From: Vermamoeba vermiformis
Lineage: Eukaryota
Direction: 5' to 3'
Length of the DNA stretch: 64,000 nt
Assembly (NCBI GenBank): GCA_045837725.1
Contig: JBEWZL010000202.1
Location: 62,001-126,000, forward strand
Shown here: one piece after another, positions 10,087-56,009 of the stretch
Numbering within the stretch: position 1 is the first letter of the stretch
Layout: each line of letters opens with the position of its first letter
Notes under the pieces: generated by a model
What the model saw: only the letters and a program-made list of their open reading frames with translations
Databases searched by the model: none
Told to the model about the DNA's origin: nothing
Translations under genes and position numbers: made by a program

Positions 10087-10751
10087 ATGAGTACTGTTGA
10101 CACCATTCCCGCCGCTGGCACTAGCTTGCATGGCTCGTCCACAATCCAAAAGACCGTATCAGCGCGCATACGAGAAGAAACGCTTCGAAACTACGATATT
10201 TACAGCGTAAGACACTTTACCATTTAATTCAAAGAATATAGCATTTCTGACGTTTGTTACTGCAACACGGATCTAATTTCTGCTTTGTACCAGAAAACAA
10301 ACAATCTTAGTGCGATGCGTATTGCCGACTTGCACAAAGAAATGAGCGTCGATCGCATGGCAGGACTGCTTACAAGCAGCTTTGGTCTATTCTGTTTCAC
10401 TCTGACCGTATTGTCTTCCCGCTGGTGGATGCTGTTGCTTTTTGCCTCATTAGTTTCGCTTGTGCAGCAAGGTGTAACGGTAAGCTATCTGAAAAGCAAT
10501 ATATTGAATTAATTTTCCGATTGTTCCTTAGAAATGGTCGCTGCCTTACCATTTGCTTCGAATCCTCGTAAGTCGTGCAGATCCTACATTCTTCAAGTCA
10601 TTGTTGTATTAAAATTCCGCTTATTTAGGGTTTTCGAACGCACCAAGAGATATATAGCGAGATTGAAGCGCTTAGAATTGCTCGCGGTGACTTCGAAACA
10701 AAAGATCCCGCCAAACTGGCAGAGAAAAACATTCAAATGGCCGAAGCGTAA
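10087..10751 (+). CDS. DUF2892/YgaP-like membrane protein of bacterial type, intron-containing
   Basis: Spliced translation RIADLHKEMSVDR...RWWMLLL...QQGVTKWSLPYHLLRILGFRTHQEIYSEIEALRIARGDF resembles the recalled bacterial pattern RLxELDREWDIER...GWCPP..RRLGxRTxxEIxxERxALKALRGDF; 3 introns. Confidence 0.6.
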
Positions 10752-11186: not shown

Positions 11187-11338
11187 TGTAACAAAACCAA
11201 GAGTTTGGTTAAGGGGTAAAATACGTGTTTATTGTAGTAAAATAATAAAAGAACGAATAAAACAGCGTTCGAATCGGTTTTGTGCGCTGAGTCACGTGAT
11301 TTATTGCCTACGTGGCAATAAACACGAGTTTTGTTACA
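11187..11338 (-). repeat. 3' LTR (152 bp)
   Basis: Identical to 12371-12522; adjacent to the PPT. Confidence 0.95.
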
Positions 11339-12370: not shown

Positions 12371-12522
12371 TGTAACAAAACCAAGAGTTTGGTTAAGGGG
12401 TAAAATACGTGTTTATTGTAGTAAAATAATAAAAGAACGAATAAAACAGCGTTCGAATCGGTTTTGTGCGCTGAGTCACGTGATTTATTGCCTACGTGGC
12501 AATAAACACGAGTTTTGTTACA
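12371..12522 (-). repeat. 5' LTR (152 bp)
   Basis: Identical to 11187-11338; adjacent to the PBS. Confidence 0.95.
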
Positions 12523-26668: not shown

Positions 26669-29194
26669 TTACATATTTATATTGCAGATGCCATAGAATT
26701 CTATGCGATTGTTAAGGAAGGTCCAATAACCTGGTACACGGATCTGATCTTGGATCCAGCTTCTTCCAAACACTAAAGATTTAACAGGCGTAGTATAAGG
26801 TCCTAAAGTATGAATGTGGTCGCCACTTCTGAGGTTCCAAATATAAATCTTCTTATCTTGCCCACCTAAAAGAATCAGATCAGCCGAAGCCTTCAATTAC
26901 GATGGTTAATGCGGCTATTAAGCTTTAAAAAATAATACCAAAAATAAAAAGAGAGGGGGACCAATTACGGCCTGTTGTACAATGCACGTCTGATCCGTTC
27001 GCAAGTCAAGTTCAAATTAGCTAGCCAATCTGAACTCAAACTCACGCCGCGACCCTCTAAGAATAAATTGTTCAATCATCGATGCACAGCGCGGTGGCTG
27101 GCAGGCTTAGAGATTAAACTAAGCAGAACAGATACTACACTTCGATCGGAGCCAAGGCTCGGAGAAGGTACTTCTAAGTTGTCTACTTAGGCTTCATATA
27201 GCTACGTTTGAATTGTAAGGGATAATTTACGGGACCAAAATAAATTTTTTGGTCGAGAAAGGTGTTGGAAGTTGCGGATGTACTTCTCTAAGAATTCTCA
27301 ATTTGTCGGTTATTAAAATTAGCTTACCAATAAATACAAACTCTTCGTTCGGATCAACGGAGAATTTGTTTGAGGTCATCTGGTTGGAATACTCCATCCT
27401 AGTAACAACCTTGCTAACTCTTCGATCCCAAACGTTGATCTGACAAAATTTAATCAACAAACGGCTCTATTAGCACTTCGTTGTCATATACTTACTACGC
27501 CATTTATAGAATTGGAGACCAGATAGTTATCATCCCTCAGTAGCTTCAAGCAGGTGATCGATGACTCGTGTTTCATGAGAGGCGCGTGACTTCCAAACGG
27601 CGTTCGTTGCGTGTGCTGACGAATATCGAATGTACGAACCTTGCCATCGCGTGATCCATTTAACAATATATTGCTCTTGAGAATATATTAGCTCCAAGGA
27701 AACAACTTGCATAGGTAGATCTGACGTACGTTTTCAGTGAACGCTTGCGCAAAAACATCGCTTTTTTCAGTGAAACAATTTATCACCTTCGTCGTGACAG
27801 TATCAAGGATCATGGCACCCTTGCTGATGCCCATAGAAATGTATTGTCCATTCGAAGACCATTGATGACACCACATTGAACCTTTGCGCAGCTTCGTTAC
27901 ATGTTCGCACTGAAGACGCGAATTATATAGCTTTAATTCGCCGCTACGACCTCCTCCTAGAATAGTCGAACTAAATGCAGATCCGGTCAATAAAAGTAAT
28001 TAACTTCAATAGTAGAATTACTCTACCTGTACATTGTCTTGTGCTTTGAATGAAATCCCACCGAGCTTATCTGCAATCATGTATGTTAACAATACTATTA
28101 TTATAACAGTCTTAACGTACTGAACTCGATTCTGTCGTGCATAATCCTTTGACATAAATATCTTTGTCTCGCCATTCAAGTTTATCAACCCTGTGAGTCA
28201 CAATGTCAGGTTATAAGTCCATGAAATATCTTGACGTACATGAATTGACCGTCTCTTAAACCAGTTATCAATGTCTCATTGTTCTGTACAATCATGTCAA
28301 AACATTCTGTGTCAGGAAGTGGCCAAGGAAAATTATATCGGCATTCTATCCGCTTGAATAGCGCTGCTAATGATTTGCTAAATATAGAGATATTAGTATA
28401 AGAATATTTTAAATTGATTCCACTTACGATACAAATTCTTTCGGTCGTTGAGATCTACCAGCTTCTCTTCGTATAAGAGTTGATAATGGACTCTTATATT
28501 TTTCGCTTAATATAGATATATTTACACCGCGCTCTATTCTTTCCTTTTCCTCTCGCAGTTGCCTCTCCTCTTTCTGTTTGCGATCCTTTTCCTCAGCCTT
28601 TTTCAACGCCTCTTGGTACTTCTTGTACATTACTGTGCCTGTTGGTGGCACCTTAAAGTACCTATTTATATCGGGGTCGTAGTAATAGCCTGGAAGCGGT
28701 GGCGCTGGCTCTGTTTTTGTGTCATTCGAGGATGGGCTTGACACTTTGGGTTGCTGAGGACTTTGATTCGATTGGTTACTCTTAATATTATTATTTACCA
28801 AATTGAAATGCAGGGTCCTATTATTTCCTGCGTGCTGTGTCGTGTTATCTGAAACAAGATGGATGGTGAGCTTCTTTTTGTACTCTTTTTTCTCAATATT
28901 TCTATTATGATCATCCGACTCTTTTCTTCGATATTGAGGCTGATTATAATTTTTTGGTGAATAGGCTAAATGATTATTGCGATCTGTATAATTTTTGGAC
29001 GATTTTCTATTATTTGAATAGTTCTGGCCTTGCCTATTGTGATTATTACTGTTTTGGCTTTTTTTGTCTGTAGATCTAGAATTATAGTAAGATCTTGACC
29101 GATCACCCTCGTTATCTCCTCGTCGACGCTTTTGTTCTCTATCATCCATTTCGTCTTCGCGCCTTCGTTTTTTAAAATCCTTATTAGAGCTCAT
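26669..29194 (-). CDS. DCAF4: DDB1-CUL4-associated WD40 protein (DCAF4/WDR21-like)
   Basis: LPGYYYDPDINRYFKV N-terminal motif; KSDVFAQAF, NGSRDGKVRTFDIR, VWDRR (WDxR) WD40 repeats. Confidence 0.75.
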
Positions 29195-48045: not shown

Positions 48046-50089
48046 TTACTGCTCATCGGGATCAACGAAGTTCTCCTTGACCATGTGAGTCTTGATCCAC
48101 TCGGTGGTGACTGACTTAGGTCTCTCAATAGGAAGACCCAAAGCTCTGTCCCAAACCAAGCTAGACAAGACACCAATGGCTCTGGAAACACCGAACAAGA
48201 CGGTGTAGTATTCGTGTTCCTTCAAACCGAAGTATTGGAGCAAGACACCAGAGTGGGCGTCAACGTTGGGCCAAGGGTTCTTAGCCTTGCCTTGTTCTCT
48301 CAAGACGTCAGGGACGACTTCGTAGAGTCTTGAGACCAACTTGAACATAGAGTCGTGAGGCAAGTGCTTCAAAGCGAACTCACGTTGGCTGGTGTAACGA
48401 GGATCAGTCTTTCTCAAGACGGCGTGACCGTAGCCAGGGACGACTTGACCACCCTTGAGCAAGTTCCAGACTTCAGTTCTCAACTTCTCCTTAGTGGGCT
48501 CTTCAACACCGATCTTCTTTTGGAGATCGACCAAGAAACGAAGAACTTCTTGGTTGGCAAGACCGTGCAAAGGACCAGCAAGACCGTTCATACCAGCAGC
48601 GAAGGCCAAGTAAGGGTCAGACAAAGCAGAACCGACCAAGCGGACAGTGTGGGCAGAGACGTTACCACCCTCGTGGTCGCTGTGGATAACCAAGTACAAG
48701 CGCATCAAGTCGTCGAATTGAGCGTTGTTGAAGCCCAACAAGCGAGCGAAGTTAGCGCTGTAGTCCAACTTGGCGTCGTGAGCGGCGAGCTTGCCGTCCT
48801 TGTAGGTGTTTCTGTAGATGCGAGCAGCAATCTCGGGCAAAGCGGCGAGAATGTTCAAGGTGTCTTCGAAGGAAGAGTCCCAGTACTCGGTCTTCTTGGT
48901 GCCAGATTGGTAGGCCTTGGCGAATTGAGACTCGGATTGCATGGCAGTGACGGCAGCAGACAATTGAGACATGGGGTGGAGGTGCTTGGGGAAGTTGTTC
49001 AACAAATCAACAACGTGCTTGGGGAGCTTGCTGCGCTTGTGCAATTCGTGGGTAATAGCGTTGGCCTAGTAAAAGAATAACAAAAGTTAGACGCAAAAAA
49101 AAGATACGGATCGCGTGTCGGATGTGGCAGTAAACAAATAAAAAAAGAATATCACGGACTTTTAGCACCACGGTCCCATCAGAAGTAGATTGCTTCTAGT
49201 ACCGCAGTGACTCTAAAGCCGTTTGTATTGATGCTCGAGAGCATGTAGTGGCGTGCTTACTTGATCTTGAGTGGGAACCTCGCCAGTAATCATCAACCAC
49301 AACAAAGCCTCAGGGAGGGGTTCAGTACCCTTGCCCTTGGGCAACTTCTCTTGCAACTCGGGGATGGTGAATCCACGGAAACGAATACCCTGTAACAAGA
49401 TCGTGAGTTTTGACTCGTACTCCAGATGGCACCGCATTGATTTATGGGAATGTTAACGTACCTCGTTGGAGTCCAACAAAGAGGTTTCGTAAACCATAGC
49501 CTTAACGTCTCTCATACCAGCGTAGGCCTAATAAAATTACGCGTTAATTTTTGGATCGATCGCATCCCGCAACGGCTAGCTGATTGGATCTTACTTGTTC
49601 AACAGTGCAGGTACCCAAAACCTTAGCACCGAGCTTGGTTCTGATTTCCTTGACTTCCTCTCTCTTAGCAGGAATCAATTCCTTCAAACGCTTCTTCAAG
49701 CCCTATTTTTAAAAATAAAAATCAGACCTATTCCTGAGCACGAAAATAAATAATATGACATCAGCTATATTACGGTAAATAATTAGGTAAAATTATCCGG
49801 TTATTGTATCGGTCATTAAAAAGTTTTCTGGTTTTGTGGGTGTGGATGAGATTTGTTTCTTCGCCGCGTTTCGTTGCACTATATCGAATTTAAGCATACT
49901 TACAGATTCGTCTTGGTGAGTAGCATAAGAGCGAGAGGCAATGGAGCCGAAGATCGACTTGTTAGAGGTCTACAACAAACGAGGATTAGATTTCATGCCC
50001 CGCAATTATCTTCGAATAATTAATTATACCTGAACAACGTTAGATTTGCCCAAGGCCTTAACAACTGATGAACGGAGAGTAGACAACAT
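48046..50089 (-). CDS. CS: Mitochondrial citrate synthase
   Basis: Presequence [72 protein letters not shown]. Confidence 0.97.
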
Positions 50090-50693
50090 CTGAAAAAAAT
50101 AATTACGGTGAGTTCAATAGGAAGATATTTTGATTATAGAAGCCTTTAATTATTCATAGCGTTCCAATAATTTTCAGGAGCATTATTATCGCTGATACAT
50201 TGCAATATCGATTTATTTAAGTAGTACGAGACTGCATCAGGCTTCGTAAAAAAGATGCAAAACGGCCTCGGAACTTGGTAAGAGTCAAAGGTTGGGTAAT
50301 ATTCATACCTTTGTTTGGTGGTTGTGTAGTAAAAATGGCGATAAACAAATGTCCTAACAAATTTCGTGAAGGACACGGCACGGGGACAAGTTTTCTGCTA
50401 GATCTCCCGTTTTATCAATTTTACGCTCAAATAACCCGAAGCGAACTTGTCAATCAACCTTACTATGGTCCAACTTTTCGATCGTTCCTGCCAATCCGAT
50501 GTCTCTAAATATTTCTCCGGCCATTTGTTCTGCCGGATGTAACTGGAACACAACTGTCGAGACGAGCGAACAGCTGTTACTGATAGCTCCGGATATATTT
50601 AGTATTAGTAGGGCGTTTCGTTGCGCTCCCACAATAAAGGCAGCGAAATTTGTCGGCAACCAATAAAGACCTGCAATCAAGCATTTATGAAGC

Positions 50694-50856
50694 ACGGTTG
50701 TCATATGGCATGAGGGCGAGGGGTGTGGTTGCAATGATACTTAATACGATACATCATAGTGATATGATGACATTAGCATTGCGACTCATGGTTAAAGACT
50801 GAAGTTGACCAGTCCTCGCTTAGGGGGTTCGATTCCCTCCGATCGTATCTCTTTTT
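50694..50856 (+). ncRNA. Candidate tRNA-like Pol III RNA of non-canonical structure
   Basis: Perfect B-box/T-arm GGGGG-TTCGATT-CCCTC (50823-50839); 7-bp acceptor-like stem ACGGTTG/CGATCGT; T5 terminator 50852-50856; extensive internal pairing; no canonical anticodon arm. Confidence 0.55.
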
Positions 50857-50991
50857 GCCTCTGCTCCTTTGTATATTAAGGCTCTAATGCGTATTGCTTA
50901 GTCATCTAGCTATTAGTCTTTGATTTTCGTTATTTTTGGGTCTAATTTAAATTTCATAATTAATTTATTTTCTTTTGTTTTGTATTTCGCC

Positions 50992-52777
50992 ATGAAGACA
51001 ACAACGAAACTATTGTCTATTTTTGTTATATTTGTTGTGCTTGCTTCGGCATTCACTCCAGGTAAGTAACCAATCCACGTCACCAACGAGGGATCGGCTT
51101 AGCATTGATTCGTATCGGTAATTAATATCTTGATTTATACAGTTTTGTCCAAGAGATCGGCGGAGGTAATACAGCAGTAAAATAGCACTACCGAGAACAA
51201 AATTTTTTTTGGATCAACTTGTTTTCGCTTGTTTAACGAGCCATGTCCTTACAAAAATTTCTAAAAAATAGGAGGATGATGAATATGACGATGACGAGTT
51301 TGTTGGCGTCGAGGAAGTAAAACAAAAGCCCACGAAGCCATCTGCACCTGTCAAACCTGAGATCCCTATTAGTACGTGACCTGCCAGGCAAAAAGTAATG
51401 CGATATTTTTATTAATAGTATTTTATTAGATGATGTGCTCCTAAATGAGTCCAAAGGCCCATCAAATTATTACATGGAGATCGGCATCGTTGCCTTCGTC
51501 GTAGTTTACATCATGTACTCGTTTGTTGGCAAGAACCAAAACGAAGCTTATGCTCTCGCTTGGTGAGTTGATCGATATTATACGAAGGCGAGGTGTACTA
51601 ATATCAATAACATTGCAGGGCTAAGACTTATCGTGCCACCCTCGAAGAACAATTCAGCAAAGTTGGCGAGGCCGCGAACACTTTGTTGGTCAAAGAAAGT
51701 CAAGCACGCTTTGTCGCTCACTGCACTGGTCGAGCTAACTGCATTGGTGCTCAATTCACCCTCAAGGTATGTCTAATAATGAAGCTTTATGGCACGTGAT
51801 TGACCACCTTGCCTAGATGCACAAACGTCACGACTTGTTGAGTGGCTTGTACAGCATTGTCAGCAGATCTCAAGACGAGGTTATTATTGACATTCCTATG
51901 AACGACGATGCCATGGAGCCCTTCGTCTTTGCGCTCGTGCCCAAGAACGAGAAGCGTCAATACCAAAAGGAGTACCCTGACTTGGTACGGTCCCTCGCAC
52001 CTACATTCTGTCCTATGTCTCACCATTTGTATTGTAGGAATCCTTGGCCACTACCGTTAATCACGAAGCAGTCCCTAAGGGCAAAGTCTTGTTGTCTGAC
52101 TGCAGTGAAATGGTCTCGACTATTTTGACCGGAGACGTCGCCAAGACCCTCCAATCATTCGACAAGGACATCGTCTTCGTGCACTTCACTGACCAGTTCG
52201 CCGTGGACCCCAAGTAGTAAGTAGCCCTTGTTTACATGATTATGATTTAGATGCTCAACGAGCCAATTTCAGCCCGAAGATTTTGCGATTTGTGTTGCGA
52301 ATGCCGCCATTGAGCGATATGGGCCGACACGTCACTATCTTCAAGATGATTTTCTTCTTGGTAGATTTGATTGGCAGAACCAAGTTGTCCGATAGAGTAA
52401 GTCTGCCGTGTCTATGTCAGATCCATGGATGTGCTCATGTTCGACTTAGGCTAAACAAGCTGCCACGCAAAAGAGACAGAAGATCGTCCAAAAGAGCTTG
52501 AAAGAGACTCGCCAACAACGCGAGGAGGTAGGACAAGCCAGTATAATTGTTCTCTGATCCGACTTTTTGACACCGGAACTAGGCTGCTCAACAACGAAGA
52601 CTTGAGAAAGAACGTGCTGAAAAAGAAAAGTTAGAGAAGCGCATGGAGAACATGACTCCCGAGCAACAAAGAAAACTCGAGGCCAAGTTGAAGCGAAGAG
52701 AGGTTAAGAAGGTAACGTTACTCTAATGATATTGATTCTACGCTGGTGCTAACACGTACTTGTAGAACAAAATCTAA
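50992..52777 (+). CDS. CCDC47: PAT complex subunit CCDC47 (DUF1682)
   Basis: Signal peptide, acidic DDEFVG, TM followed by GKNQN..A.AW, CTGRANC, KRHDLL, VHFTDQ, C-terminal MTPEQQRKLEAK. Confidence 0.85.
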
Positions 52778-52929: not shown

Positions 52930-54429
52930 TTATTTGTATTTGTCAAATATTTTGCGCGCAATAGATTCAAATGACCTTAAGCCAGGATAACGCAAGTACT
53001 TAAACACATTGATCCAGATCTCAGGTGGGATCAACGCTTTCATCGACGAATCTCGTGCAAGACTATGTATCACAACCACATTATTCTCGTACATTTCTTG
53101 CTGAAAGATTCTATTCCGCATTAAGTATTTTTCAACAGGAGCGCCGAAAAAGCCCAAATGGATCAAGGAATAATTGACTTCAAACAAGGATATAAATTGT
53201 TCTTCACGGTATATAATCAGGGGCATATCATCGGTTATGCTTACTTCAAGGGATTTTAACGTGTTATTTTCTTTGAGTGCATCCACGAACCTGTCGATAT
53301 TGTCGTTGTACTGGCCAATCACTGCAATCCATTCCAATTTAGTATTTTTCTTAATAATATCAACCATTGTTCCAATTATAGAGCCTTGACAGGCATAGTC
53401 GCCAGTCATAAGATTTTCTATACTCGGATGTGTCTCCAAAACTGAACCATAATACCGAATAGATGCGTCATCCACATTATGCAATAACAATATTAGTTGA
53501 TGTAGCGTATCATTTCCTTTCAGTCCGTCCGCTAGTGCTCTGCATCCGTCGTTCGATGAGACTTGCAAAGATAGCCTTTTTAGGCTTTTATTGCATCGTA
53601 GAGCCTCGCTGAATTCTTTTGTAAATCCCTCTGAGATAGGGTGCTCTGGTTCTCCTAACATTAGGTCCGTTAACGAGCTGATCTTGAAAATTGTAGCAGG
53701 AACGGATGTGTATTCATTGCCCGATAGGTTCAATGTCCGAACAGTCTTATTGTCTTTCAATGCATCGCATAGTATTTCTAATGCTTCATTATTGATCTTG
53801 GCTACGAGGTGCAAGCTAGTTATTGAATTGTTGGATCTGAGACCTTCCGCCAAACTAGTTATAGCTGTCCGATTGAATGGATAATCGGAGTCTATATGCA
53901 ACTCTTTCAATGTCTTAGTATATTTTAATCCATCAAGGAAATTGTCTATCGTGGAAATTCCGGGTGAATGTTCGGACAATGATAGCATTTCTATCGATTT
54001 GTTTTCTTCGAAAAGATCGTTCAATATGCACCATAATTCAGCACAGTCATATATCATAAGCTTTTGAATAGATTTGTTTGTTTTCAAGCCATCAGATAAA
54101 TACTGAACTTCATCCGGATGTACCTTCACCCGAGCAAAATGCAGCAATTGCAAATTATTGAGTGATCCGATAGCTTCACCAAACATTTGACCGGCACCTT
54201 TTACTACTGTCATGTCACATATCGATAGTTTTGTCAAATTGTTGCAAGATCTCAATCCAGCTGAGAAAATGTTCGTCAGTTGTGGATCATCCGTTGAAGA
54301 TTGCCACGTTAGTGCCAGGTCATTTAATATTCTATTATTTTCTAAGAATTGTCCTAGCCATTTAACAATCGAATCATCTTCAGCGTAAAATGCCTTCACG
54401 TCCAACGACTTTACTGACGAATTCTTCAT
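52930..54429 (-). CDS. RNI-like (NLRC3-type) leucine-rich repeat protein; upstream exons near 54478-54845 unresolved
   Basis: Repeated LxxGLKxNxSLxxLxL units in a 499-aa ORF; C-terminal IPPEIWINVFKYL. Confidence 0.8.
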   Translation of the reverse strand: MKNSSVKSLDVKAFYAEDDSIVKWLGQFLENNRILNDLALTWQSSTDDPQLTNIFSAGLRSCNNLTKLSICDMTVVKGAGQMFGEAIGSLNNLQLLHFARVKVHPDEVQYLSDGLKTNKSIQKLMIYDCAELWCILNDLFEENKSIEMLSLSEHSPGISTIDNFLDGLKYTKTLKELHIDSDYPFNRTAITSLAEGLRSNNSITSLHLVAKINNEALEILCDALKDNKTVRTLNLSGNEYTSVPATIFKISSLTDLMLGEPEHPISEGFTKEFSEALRCNKSLKRLSLQVSSNDGCRALADGLKGNDTLHQLILLLHNVDDASIRYYGSVLETHPSIENLMTGDYACQGSIIGTMVDIIKKNTKLEWIAVIGQYNDNIDRFVDALKENNTLKSLEVSITDDMPLIIYREEQFISLFEVNYSLIHLGFFGAPVEKYLMRNRIFQQEMYENNVVVIHSLARDSSMKALIPPEIWINVFKYLRYPGLRSFESIARKIFDKYK

Positions 54430-56009
54430 GGCTGTATTATTTAAATGTTCGAATAATAGGAAATTTGATAATACTGACCTCGTTGCATATGGGACAATAA
54501 TAATAGTCCTGCTTTTTGGGTGCTACAGACTTGCAATCAGGACACGGACTCAGATCCGCGTTGCTTATTGAGAGGGCGGCAATATTATTTACCGCGTTCT
54601 TATAATTGGATTCGATGATGTTTCTATCGTCAGACGACGCCAGAGTGCCTATTGTCGAATTAAATTTAATTTGAAATTAAAAAATAAAATTCATCAGATG
54701 AATTTATATCCTCAATTTTAATCTCAAAATGATGATAAGGCTACGAGCCTTTATAAATAATTACGTAATTTACTTAAAGCGATTTTTGGCCGTAAACATC
54801 TGCACCAACTGAAGTTCTCTTACCGTTGCTCATCTTCGACATAAGAAATCGACCTTATAGGATATCATTACTGCTTCGATGCACGCTGAGGGTTTCGATT
54901 TAAATTTAATCTTAGGTAACGAAACAACAAAACGTTTACATTTGGTCAAACTTTCGTCAAACACGCATTTTGAACTATTTTGTGACTTTGTGCAGTTGGT
55001 TATTAAACTGATTTTGAACTATCTTGTGACTTTTTTCCAACTCGAGCAAAATCAATTTTTACTAACACACAGATGTGTTTGATTCCCCTTACTCTTGTTC
55101 GTCACAGTTCAGCCATTTCTTCATTGACTGTTTGTCCGAGGACTTGGACAACGATCAAACCAAGCCAACAACAAAACGATTTGACGTATGAGGTGCACAT
55201 TTGTGTACGTTTGTTCATTGTCAAGAACTACGAAAGAAGACAAGGCATACCTACGATTTTTCTTTGTTACTCAATCTTGCCAGGTACGCTGAATAGTATT
55301 TTTTACCATGAATAGAAAAGAACGTACACCATAGGGCTGTAAGTAGGATCAATACTTCAGCCTGAGGGACGAGGTGGTGTTTGACGGATCAAAACAGATC
55401 GCGTTCCGTTTACGTTTAGAAGCGCATATTCGAGAACCTGCTACACAAACAATTAGAGTCTCAGTCGTAAAAAGCGCTGGTGGTAAGCTTTAATAATTAT
55501 TATTCTTTATTCTACTATTCTAGTTAAAATCGGCGCTTAATATAATATTTATCCATTATAAATATTAATATTGATATCGATGCCATGTTATTGAGGCTAC
55601 AAACGAAGGAAGGACGCCGATCAGCATTGCATAATTATTAATTAAATTTGGAATAATTCAAATCTCGGCGCATTATCGCCATCAAATTACCGCTGATAAT
55701 TTTATTCACGTTAAAAATAACGATAATTACCGTTTTTATTGCCACATCTCGTGTGATCTCGATTTTCGGGTCCATCTGACTTTAAATCATAATCTACATT
55801 TGACGAACGTGACCTGCTTTACGCCATATGCGAATTAATACTGCCTTGTTGTCCTGACGTCGAATTGTTCAGCTAAATAAAAACGCGGCATTATTTGCAC
55901 ACTCGTTGCAACGGACGAGCACCATAGTTAAGATAGCTATTCATCTCATCACTACGCACAATAATTTAACCTACTCGCTTTTTTTTTATTGGTAGCATTG
56001 TCTACTATA

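Follow-up and report, generated by a model that had tools for sequence, protein, structure and literature searches.

What kind of gene combines the acceptor stem and T arm of a tRNA with a long, branched domain in the place of the anticodon arm? The question is raised by an element at positions 50694–50856 (plus strand) of a stretch of 64,000 nucleotides (nt) of Vermamoeba vermiformis DNA (assembly GCA_045837725.1, contig JBEWZL010000202.1, positions 62,001 to 126,000 of the forward strand; the whole of this stretch is referred to here as the window). We find that the element is a real, conserved gene that matches no catalogued RNA family, and with moderate confidence we interpret it as a stand-alone gene for a non-decoding, tRNA-mimic RNA of a ribonucleoprotein particle (RNP). 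An undescribed tRNA-mimic noncoding RNA (ncRNA) was among the possibilities raised in an initial annotation made from the letters of the window, and it is the one that has gained ground: the element is conserved with compensatory changes, is represented among RNA reads, has no Rfam family, and lacks a recoverable anticodon arm.

Conservation of the element and its fold

Metagenome contigs were searched with a CCDC47 exon—CCDC47 being the gene next to the element—and three loci (L001 to L003) were recovered; L001 and L003 stop short of the element, and the full-length copies that were aligned are two, those of the window and of L002. The L002 locus (contig Ga0209960_1004531), with 90% protein identity to the query CCDC47 exon, contains an ortholog of the element at its positions 201–359, in the same place upstream of CCDC47. 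A 21-mer from 50737–50757 gave no matches in the metagenome contigs, L002 having escaped it through a difference in the last base. Window and L002 are 84% identical over the element and 54% and 61% identical over 200 nt and 100 nt of the upstream flank, respectively, 58% over the spacer between the element and the CCDC47 ATG, and 79% and 86% over two CCDC47 exons; all 12 bases of the trailer and T5 segment (50848–50859) are the same. Between these two copies, the whole element, most unpaired stretches included, is conserved like the neighboring coding exons. A closer relative, about 95% identical, is represented by a 4831-nt contig (X3), and its itemized changes within the element (three substitutions and two one-base indels) all fall in 50758–50775, at the tip of a long hairpin; its flanks have five substitutions in 74 nt upstream, and seven substitutions with six indel events in 135 nt downstream. 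As 23 of the 24 X3 substitutions in 50620–51350 are itemized, at most one is hidden. A contig from a water metagenome (X5) has a pattern resembling that of X3.

The predicted parts of the element, on which the comparison of paired positions was done, are as follows.

50694–50856 (+): tRNA-shaped RNA gene, with an RNA of about 155–160 nt, situated in a short spacer upstream of CCDC47
50694 (+): predicted first base of the RNA; RNA depth begins in the bin starting there
50694–50700 / 50840–50846 (+): acceptor-like stem, ACGGTTG / CGATCGT, plus unpaired A50847 at the discriminator position
50701–50713 (+): mini D arm, TCAT / loop ATGGC / ATGA; stem invariant
50714–50722 / 50813–50821 (+): 9-bp helix in the place of the anticodon stem, with three G-U pairs; in the minimum-free-energy (MFE) fold and in RNAalifold
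50723–50726 (+): junction GUGU, invariant
50727–50786 (+): long hairpin, with lower stem 50727–50736 / 50777–50786
50737–50776 (+): conserved 40-nt core of the long hairpin, with internal loop ATACTTAATACGATA and the 5-bp helix TTAAT/ATTAG; all 20 nt of its 5′ half are the same in L002
50752–50758 / 50763–50769 (+): tip stem of the long hairpin, inside the 40-nt core
50759–50762 (+): tip loop of the long hairpin, variable among the window, L002, X3, and the RNA reads (X18) described below
50789–50811 (+): hairpin 2, TGGTTAA / loop AGACTGAAG / TTGACCA; CTGAAG of the loop invariant
50823–50839 (+): T arm, GGGGG-TTCGATT-CCCTC, with an exact B box at 50826–50836
50848–50856 (+): trailer TCTC and T5 terminator (T5 at 50852–50856)

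All of the helices described in the initial annotation are present where it placed them, and the MFE fold reproduces them. The hallmarks of a tRNA that are found include the 7-bp acceptor stem, the 5-bp T stem, a T loop of the form TTCRANN with G53-C61, and GG in the D loop. The D loop itself reads AUGGC in the window, AAGGU in L002 and, through a one-base deletion, AUGG in the X18 reads, with only the GG constant; in tRNA this dinucleotide is required for the elbow contact with the T loop. The four-way junction is tighter than that of a tRNA, with connectors of 0–1 nt (the single nucleotide, A50822, separates the 9-bp helix from the T arm, whereas the acceptor stem and D arm, the D arm and 9-bp helix, and the T arm and acceptor stem adjoin with 0 nt) and no variable loop. 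The 9-bp helix and the branched domain that it encloses stand in the place of the decoding arm, and ARAGORN run on deletion variants gives no tRNA at its default threshold. RNAalifold supports all of the helices but hairpin 2, where it prefers a 3-bp CUG/CAG hairpin, and it lengthens the 9-bp helix with G-U, U-A, and G-C pairs that join the 50723–50726 junction to 50787–50789. Hairpin 2 is present at its coordinates but weaker than the initial annotation had it, the fourth pair being an A·A mismatch in L002; the consensus of the loose ends of X18 reads has the same T-to-A change at 50792 as hairpin 2 of L002.

Fold energy alone is unremarkable: the MFE of the element is −47.6 kcal/mol (z = −1.81), and 9 of 200 shuffles fold equally well. 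That the fold is more than chance is a conclusion we draw from the comparison—the L002 ortholog, the pairing, and X3—and not from energy. Counted on the structure above in the window and L002, there are 54 pairs, and standard pairs occupy 104 of 106 cells, two cells being unpaired. Five pairs have changed on both sides (four in the lower stem of the long hairpin and one in the T stem), and another five have changed on one side with pairing kept (three adjacent pairs of the acceptor stem, one of the T stem, and one of hairpin 2). In L002 the lower stem of the long hairpin has one unpaired cell, and hairpin 2 has, beside its mismatch, one U-G to C-G change. When the 3′ partner was slid by 1–3 columns as a control, 32–52% of cells were paired and 0–1 compensatory pairs remained. 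By this alignment, compensatory change has maintained the acceptor stem, T arm, and long hairpin; an RNA fold in which the top half is tRNA-like is seen to be under selection, and so are the insert's unpaired sequences.

The same comparison bears on whether the element acts as DNA: a B box bound by TFIIIC, or the relic of a tDNA, would be a boundary or promoter element for CCDC47, and the RNA a by-product. The exact B box would suit such a role, as would the position of the element, which in both genomes stands 134–136 nt upstream of the start codon of CCDC47. Conservation, however, extends over 160 nt and not 11, and two-sided, pair-keeping changes occur in three helices, which argues for selection on an RNA fold and not on a protein-binding DNA site; we regard a DNA-level role as very improbable.

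RNA reads and a second family member

RNA of the element's family is present in RNA-seq run X18, a set of raw reads that has the same species label but comes from a divergent strain. Depth near the element is confined to four bins spanning 50694–50841; it is zero in 50361–50693 and in 50842–50915, and from about 51250, in the CCDC47 exon, reads are present again. Since these reads come from the divergent strain's copy and from paralogs, we infer expression of the exact window locus from that of its relatives.

The loose ends of eight X18 reads, together with one X5 contig, reveal a second locus with the same core (50737–50776), and the element therefore belongs to a small family with at least two expressed members. 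In this paralog, known from 30-nt read flanks, the core sits on a different, self-complementary lower stem. Its 5′ flank aligns with the region of the D arm and 9-bp helix, but the 5′ strand of the 9-bp helix differs; its 3′ flank begins TCATG and continues into sequence unlike that of the window gene; the hairpin 2 region is a different one.

The family bears on the idea of a decaying tRNA pseudogene, or of a tRNA-derived short interspersed element (SINE), with a chance insertion. A tRNA-derived look and related copies elsewhere in the genome are what this explanation expects, but it is largely refuted, and we leave it hardly any probability. The ortholog lies at the same position with 84% identity, against 54–61% in the flanks; pairing is kept in all but two of the 106 cells; the paralog is itself conserved, with differences at 3 of 30 positions of the 5′ flank between X18 and X5; and, besides the window copy and that of L002, no other was found in the 64-kb window or in L001–L003.

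Three further observations were made on the X18 reads. Six reads, with two start sites, contain a copy of 50782–50800 (with T>A at 50792) joined straight to 50694, and no extra letters stand between the two sides of this backward joint. The joint could reflect a circular or religated 5′ fragment cut in the CTGAAG loop, a template switch by reverse transcriptase at a true 5′ end, or a rearrangement in that strain. Four other reads end within the tip helix (about 50758–50767) of a family member and continue into at least 22 A residues. These look like polyadenylated truncated forms, and polyadenylation may be a route by which a small structured RNA enters a cDNA library. Finally, a 33-nt island at 50309–50341 is covered by X18 reads in which both flanks mismatch the window; it is probably a short word shared with a transcript of another locus.

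Comparison with tRNAs and catalogued RNA families

Neither ARAGORN nor Rfam, both of which the initial annotation had pointed to, assigns the element to a tRNA or a known family. ARAGORN reports no tRNA genes in the window, its intron, relaxed, and mitochondrial modes included. With Rfam 15 at gathering scores, a U2 gene is the only match in the window and the element is unmatched, and at E ≤ 10 nothing relevant is reported for a stretch of 701 nt. The element searched alone gives matches the size of a T arm (tmRNA, 9 bits versus 47; mascRNA, 11.6 versus 42.5) and weak box C/D matches (snoZ169, 16.8 bits with a gathering score of 55; SNORD63, 14.5; SNORD2, 13.2), whereas the L002 copy repeats the T-arm match alone and gives no C/D match. 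A covariance model (R1) run on the window and L001–L003 finds just its two training copies. Element patterns have no matches in viral contigs (three patterns) or in prokaryote genome contigs (one pattern), and no description of such an RNA was found in the literature searched by topic words and by an 18-base text string from the core.

A very atypical intron-containing tRNA had been among the initial suggestions. In this explanation the element would be a tRNA-Phe (GAA) or tRNA-His (GUG) with a very long, conserved, non-canonical intron, its mature product would be a decoding tRNA of 70–77 nt, and what is removed might survive as a stable or circular RNA. Several features lend it some color: the loop of hairpin 2 holds the invariant CTGAAG, GTG follows the 9-bp helix, and the six X18 reads that join 50782–50800 to 50694 could mean cutting in the CTGAAG loop. 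Every possible single internal stretch was removed in silico and each variant run through ARAGORN, and none passes the default threshold (0 of 7050 variants in one set, and 0 of 6402 of the window and 0 of 5952 of L002 in another). With a lower threshold, both copies first yield models of Phe (GAA) and His (GTG), at 96–97% of the ARAGORN threshold for Phe and 93% and 97% for His, but their D arms have just 2–3 bp. In the Phe model, moreover, the anticodon stem contains a G·A mismatch, and the intron would lie between positions 31 and 32, where it cuts the invariant 9-bp helix and forms no bulge-helix-bulge; the anticodon stems of the His models differ between window and L002. Nor is there a joint skipping an intron among the X18 reads, at a depth of about 2–20; the four-way junction, with connectors of 0–1 nt, has no variable loop; and the unpaired sequences of the insert are invariant and common to a paralog with a different hairpin 2 region. 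We judge an intron-containing tRNA improbable.

The remaining suggestion of this kind, a tRNA–small nucleolar RNA (snoRNA) hybrid, takes the element to be a box C/D snoRNA in a tRNA scaffold, like the archaeal pre-tRNA-Trp intron. ATGATGA and CTGA are indeed in the window sequence, as the initial annotation reported, and the weak Rfam C/D scores, far below gathering, fall on the same side. The C-box-like word at 50764–50770 is, however, TTGATGC in L002 and stands inside the tip helix (in its 3′ strand), and is therefore not a C box; as it is not conserved, the hybrid idea fails. Both boxes lie inside helices, 28 nt apart, with no terminal stem joining them, and the L002 copy has no C/D match. 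This reading is refuted by L002 and retains next to no probability.

A number of other candidates were tried and dropped. A permuted tRNA was set aside when circular permutations of 50694–50800 and 50694–50847 gave no tRNA at the default threshold and one junk 'Stop' model at a relaxed one. A spliceosomal intron inside the gene would, with its GT..AG boundaries, leave a helix without a loop. A coding or tag frame is open as far as TGA at 50800–50802 in the window, but has earlier stops in L002. Membership of tmRNA is contradicted by pair 3:70, which is G3-C70, and by the lack of a conserved tag frame; the absence of G3:U70 noted in the initial annotation holds in both window and L002. For telomerase RNA, a by-eye reading finds no CCCTAA-type template in the window or L002 copy. 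A short U6-like word, ATTAGCAT, stands on the plus strand beside the core, and 50751–50797 (minus strand) has a 10.6-bit match to the snoU6-53 model through its U6-antisense guide; there is no U6 match in Rfam, and the idea of U6-like words in the core was dropped, the antisense match, their sole trace, being probably chance.

Promoter and terminator signals

The exact B box and the T5 run reported in the initial annotation are both present. In 64 kb there is one exact B box (GGTTCGANTCC) where 0.03 would be expected, and 3 of 100 shuffles contain one; a B-box-like word with one mismatch, GCTTCGAATCC, at 10555–10565 (plus strand) is within chance expectation. A B box followed by oligo-T is plausible as a signature of RNA polymerase III (Pol III). 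A box-A-like word, TGGCATGAGGG, agrees with 6 of the 9 specified positions of what we take to be the box A consensus, and is AGGTATGAGGG in L002. Conserved words also stand upstream of the predicted start.

50626–50642 (+): upstream block CTCCCACAATAAAGGCA, 17 of 17 bases identical between window and L002, at the same offset, within flanks of 54–61% identity
50627–50634 (+): DUSE-like word TCCCACAA, at −67 to −60 from the RNA start (in L002 at 134–141, with the start at 201)
50665–50671 (+): AAAGACC, candidate −30 (TATA-like) promoter element at about −29 to −23, kept in L002

The consensus of the DUSE is given as [AT]CCCA[AT]AA, about 63 bp upstream of dictyostelid ncRNA genes (PMC3188802), and for ncRNA genes of dictyostelids, those of Pol II and those of Pol III alike, its distance from the start is put at about 60 nt (PMC7919456). 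TCCCACAA resembles this promoter element. The upstream promoter-like block, which the initial annotation does not mention, probably matters no less than the B box.

The U2 small nuclear RNA (snRNA) gene at 26951–27169 (minus strand; it scores 56.8 bits in Rfam, where the gathering score is 46) has comparable words around it (region 26946–27222), with TCCCTTACAAT at −53 to −43, TATATGAAGC at −31 to −22, and a 3′ end of TCTCTTTTT. The pattern TCCC(N0-2)ACAAT has just two sites in the window, one upstream of U2 and one upstream of the tRNA-like gene; it is suggestive only, since it was built after both sites had been seen. Of the three occurrences of TCTCTTTTT in the window, two are the 3′ ends of the tRNA-like gene and the U2 gene. 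The flanking words that these two genes share suggest a common ncRNA gene architecture in the organism.

Genomic setting

The window is nuclear eukaryotic DNA, and the spliceosomal introns of its genes are short. The element is flanked by a citrate synthase gene (minus strand) and the CCDC47 gene (plus strand). For citrate synthase, the exon at 48046–49065 is confirmed by PF00285 and has 45–69% identity to many eukaryotic proteins in a homolog search; three CCDC47 exons match PF07946, with the start codon at 50992. Directly downstream of CCDC47 and convergent with it is an intronless open frame of 530 amino acids at 52930–54522 (minus strand) with leucine-rich repeats (PF25019, 30.3 bits). Elsewhere in the window, two direct repeats of 152 nt (11187–11338 and 12371–12522) are 100% identical and 1184 nt apart.

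Comparison with known RNAs and proposed function

Several observations count against the interpretation of the element as a gene for a tRNA-mimic RNP RNA. None of the 60 X18 reads is at least 99% identical to the window. The MFE z-scores are weak (−1.81 and −1.87), and the MFE fold of L002 itself arranges the insert differently. In a shuffling control, which is weak with two sequences, 17 of 500 shuffles reach the observed pair values. Four of the helices, namely the 9-bp one, the D stem, TTAAT/ATTAG, and the tip stem, are invariant in the two full copies and have folding energy as their evidence; the comparison neither supports nor contradicts them. In X3, an A>C change at 50775 would disrupt one pair of TTAAT/ATTAG. 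Box A is poor and not conserved. TCCCACAA has one mismatch to the DUSE consensus of PMC3188802, and the DUSE-like 8-mer is not enriched in the window (13 occurrences versus 11 expected).

Among known RNAs, tmRNA has the same layout, its ends forming an acceptor stem stacked on a canonical T arm, with a reduced D arm and a long helix that encloses the remaining RNA where the anticodon arm would be. The element differs in its 3:70 pair, which is G-C and not G-U; in lacking both a pseudoknot ring and a conserved reading frame for a tag; in its length of 155 nt, versus 260–400 nt; and in being a nuclear eukaryotic gene, whereas tmRNA is found in bacteria and some organelles. The Rfam tmRNA model aligns to its T arm only. 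The gene of tRNA-Sec combines upstream promoter elements with an internal B box and is transcribed from the first base of the mature RNA, and the element is like it in its tRNA-shaped product, the apparent upstream element of snRNA type, and the apparent lack of a 5′ leader. It lacks, however, the UCA anticodon loop and the 9/4 or 8/5 geometry of acceptor and T stems, and neither a 6-bp D stem nor a long variable arm is present. Like the element as we interpret it, mascRNA and the MEN-beta tRNA-like small RNA are eukaryotic non-decoding tRNA look-alikes that use tRNA processing enzymes, but RNase P and RNase Z excise them from long Pol II transcripts, and they measure about 60 nt, their anticodon-like arm being small where the arm here is branched and 100 nt long; the element appears to have a promoter and terminator of its own. 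Y RNAs of the YrlA type likewise have a tRNA body in which the decoding part is swapped for another folded module. YrlA has its RNA ends in the Ro-binding stem, and a loop closes the acceptor end. These RNAs are bacterial or from phages, and no sequence relation to the element was found.

A vault or Y RNA of this lineage, acting in an MVP/TEP1 or Ro-type particle, is an explanation that overlaps with the one we favor and in addition names a partner. The existence of a paralog, seen in X18 and X5, fits it, and the arms of hairpin 2 recall what we take to be the Ro-binding helix of Y RNAs. For Y RNAs, this helix would then be internal and without a bulged C, and the RNA ends form a bulge-less 7-bp acceptor-like stem instead of a Ro-binding helix with a bulged C. 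For vault RNAs, the gene layout is similar: their genes have, according to PMC7058938, an internal B box, upstream elements, a terminal 5′/3′ stem, a T-run, a length of 90–150 nt, and small paralog families, with little cross-species conservation beyond the promoter boxes. In the element, by contrast, box A is not conserved and the central domain, variable in vault RNAs, is the best conserved part; it also has a true T arm, an elbow, and acceptor geometry. Neither Vault nor Y_RNA is among the Rfam matches to the element alone at E ≤ 10. We give this explanation a modest chance at most and consider it unlikely.

We return to the interpretation as a non-decoding tRNA mimic, for which the following course may be proposed. 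Transcription would start at or next to A50694, without a 5′ leader, directed by the upstream block (the DUSE-like box at about −63 and the −30 element), possibly together with the B box, and would end at the T5 run. Such a mixed promoter, leaderless start, and T5 end would point to a Pol III gene with a promoter of the tRNA-Sec or vault-like type. In the transcript, the minihelix of acceptor stem and T arm, with the elbow made by the T loop and the GG of the D loop, would form a tRNA-like top half, and this half may recruit the tRNA machinery, as in mascRNA and other tRNA look-alikes. Putative handlers include La on the U tail, RNase Z cutting after A50847, and the enzymes of CCA addition and T-loop modification, as well as tRNA export. 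The three-way junction would be displayed by the 9-bp helix, and the invariant unpaired sequences ATACTTAATACGATA, CATTAG, CTCATGG, and CTGAAG would form the functional part, to which a specific protein or RNA partner most likely binds. The RNA would thus be a scaffold or adaptor of a small RNP built on a tRNA body, and not an adaptor for amino acids in decoding.

A bolder extension, to which as a whole we assign a rather small chance, is that the RNA is a nuclear eukaryotic counterpart of tmRNA or YrlA. The tRNA-like half would bear a CCA end and perhaps an amino acid, and the RNA would bring its conserved module to a machine that binds tRNA, for example the ribosome, a complex for the modification or surveillance of tRNA, or a particle of the vault or Ro type. 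The RNA might be cut in the anticodon-like CUGAAG loop and its 107-nt 5′ part religated into a circle, an idea hinted at by the six X18 reads that join 50800 back to 50694. The family, with its two or more expressed paralogs, would then be a new class of eukaryotic small RNP RNA.

Implications

A tRNA mimic with a replaced decoding arm is of a known kind, represented by tmRNA, YrlA, and RNAs of phages, and what appears to be new is a stand-alone nuclear eukaryotic family. Stand-alone eukaryotic genes for non-decoding tRNA look-alikes are, to our knowledge, rare, and vault and Y RNAs share with tRNA only promoter boxes or nothing. Here the full geometry of acceptor stem, T arm, and elbow is under selection together with a branched domain, a design so far mainly bacterial or from phages, as in tmRNA and YrlA. 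Genes of this design are missed by tRNA finders and by Rfam. If confirmed, the finding would define a new small RNA family with at least two paralogs, would provide in the invariant 40-nt core a handle for its partner, and would suggest that a dictyostelid-like upstream promoter element of ncRNA genes is used beyond the known cases.

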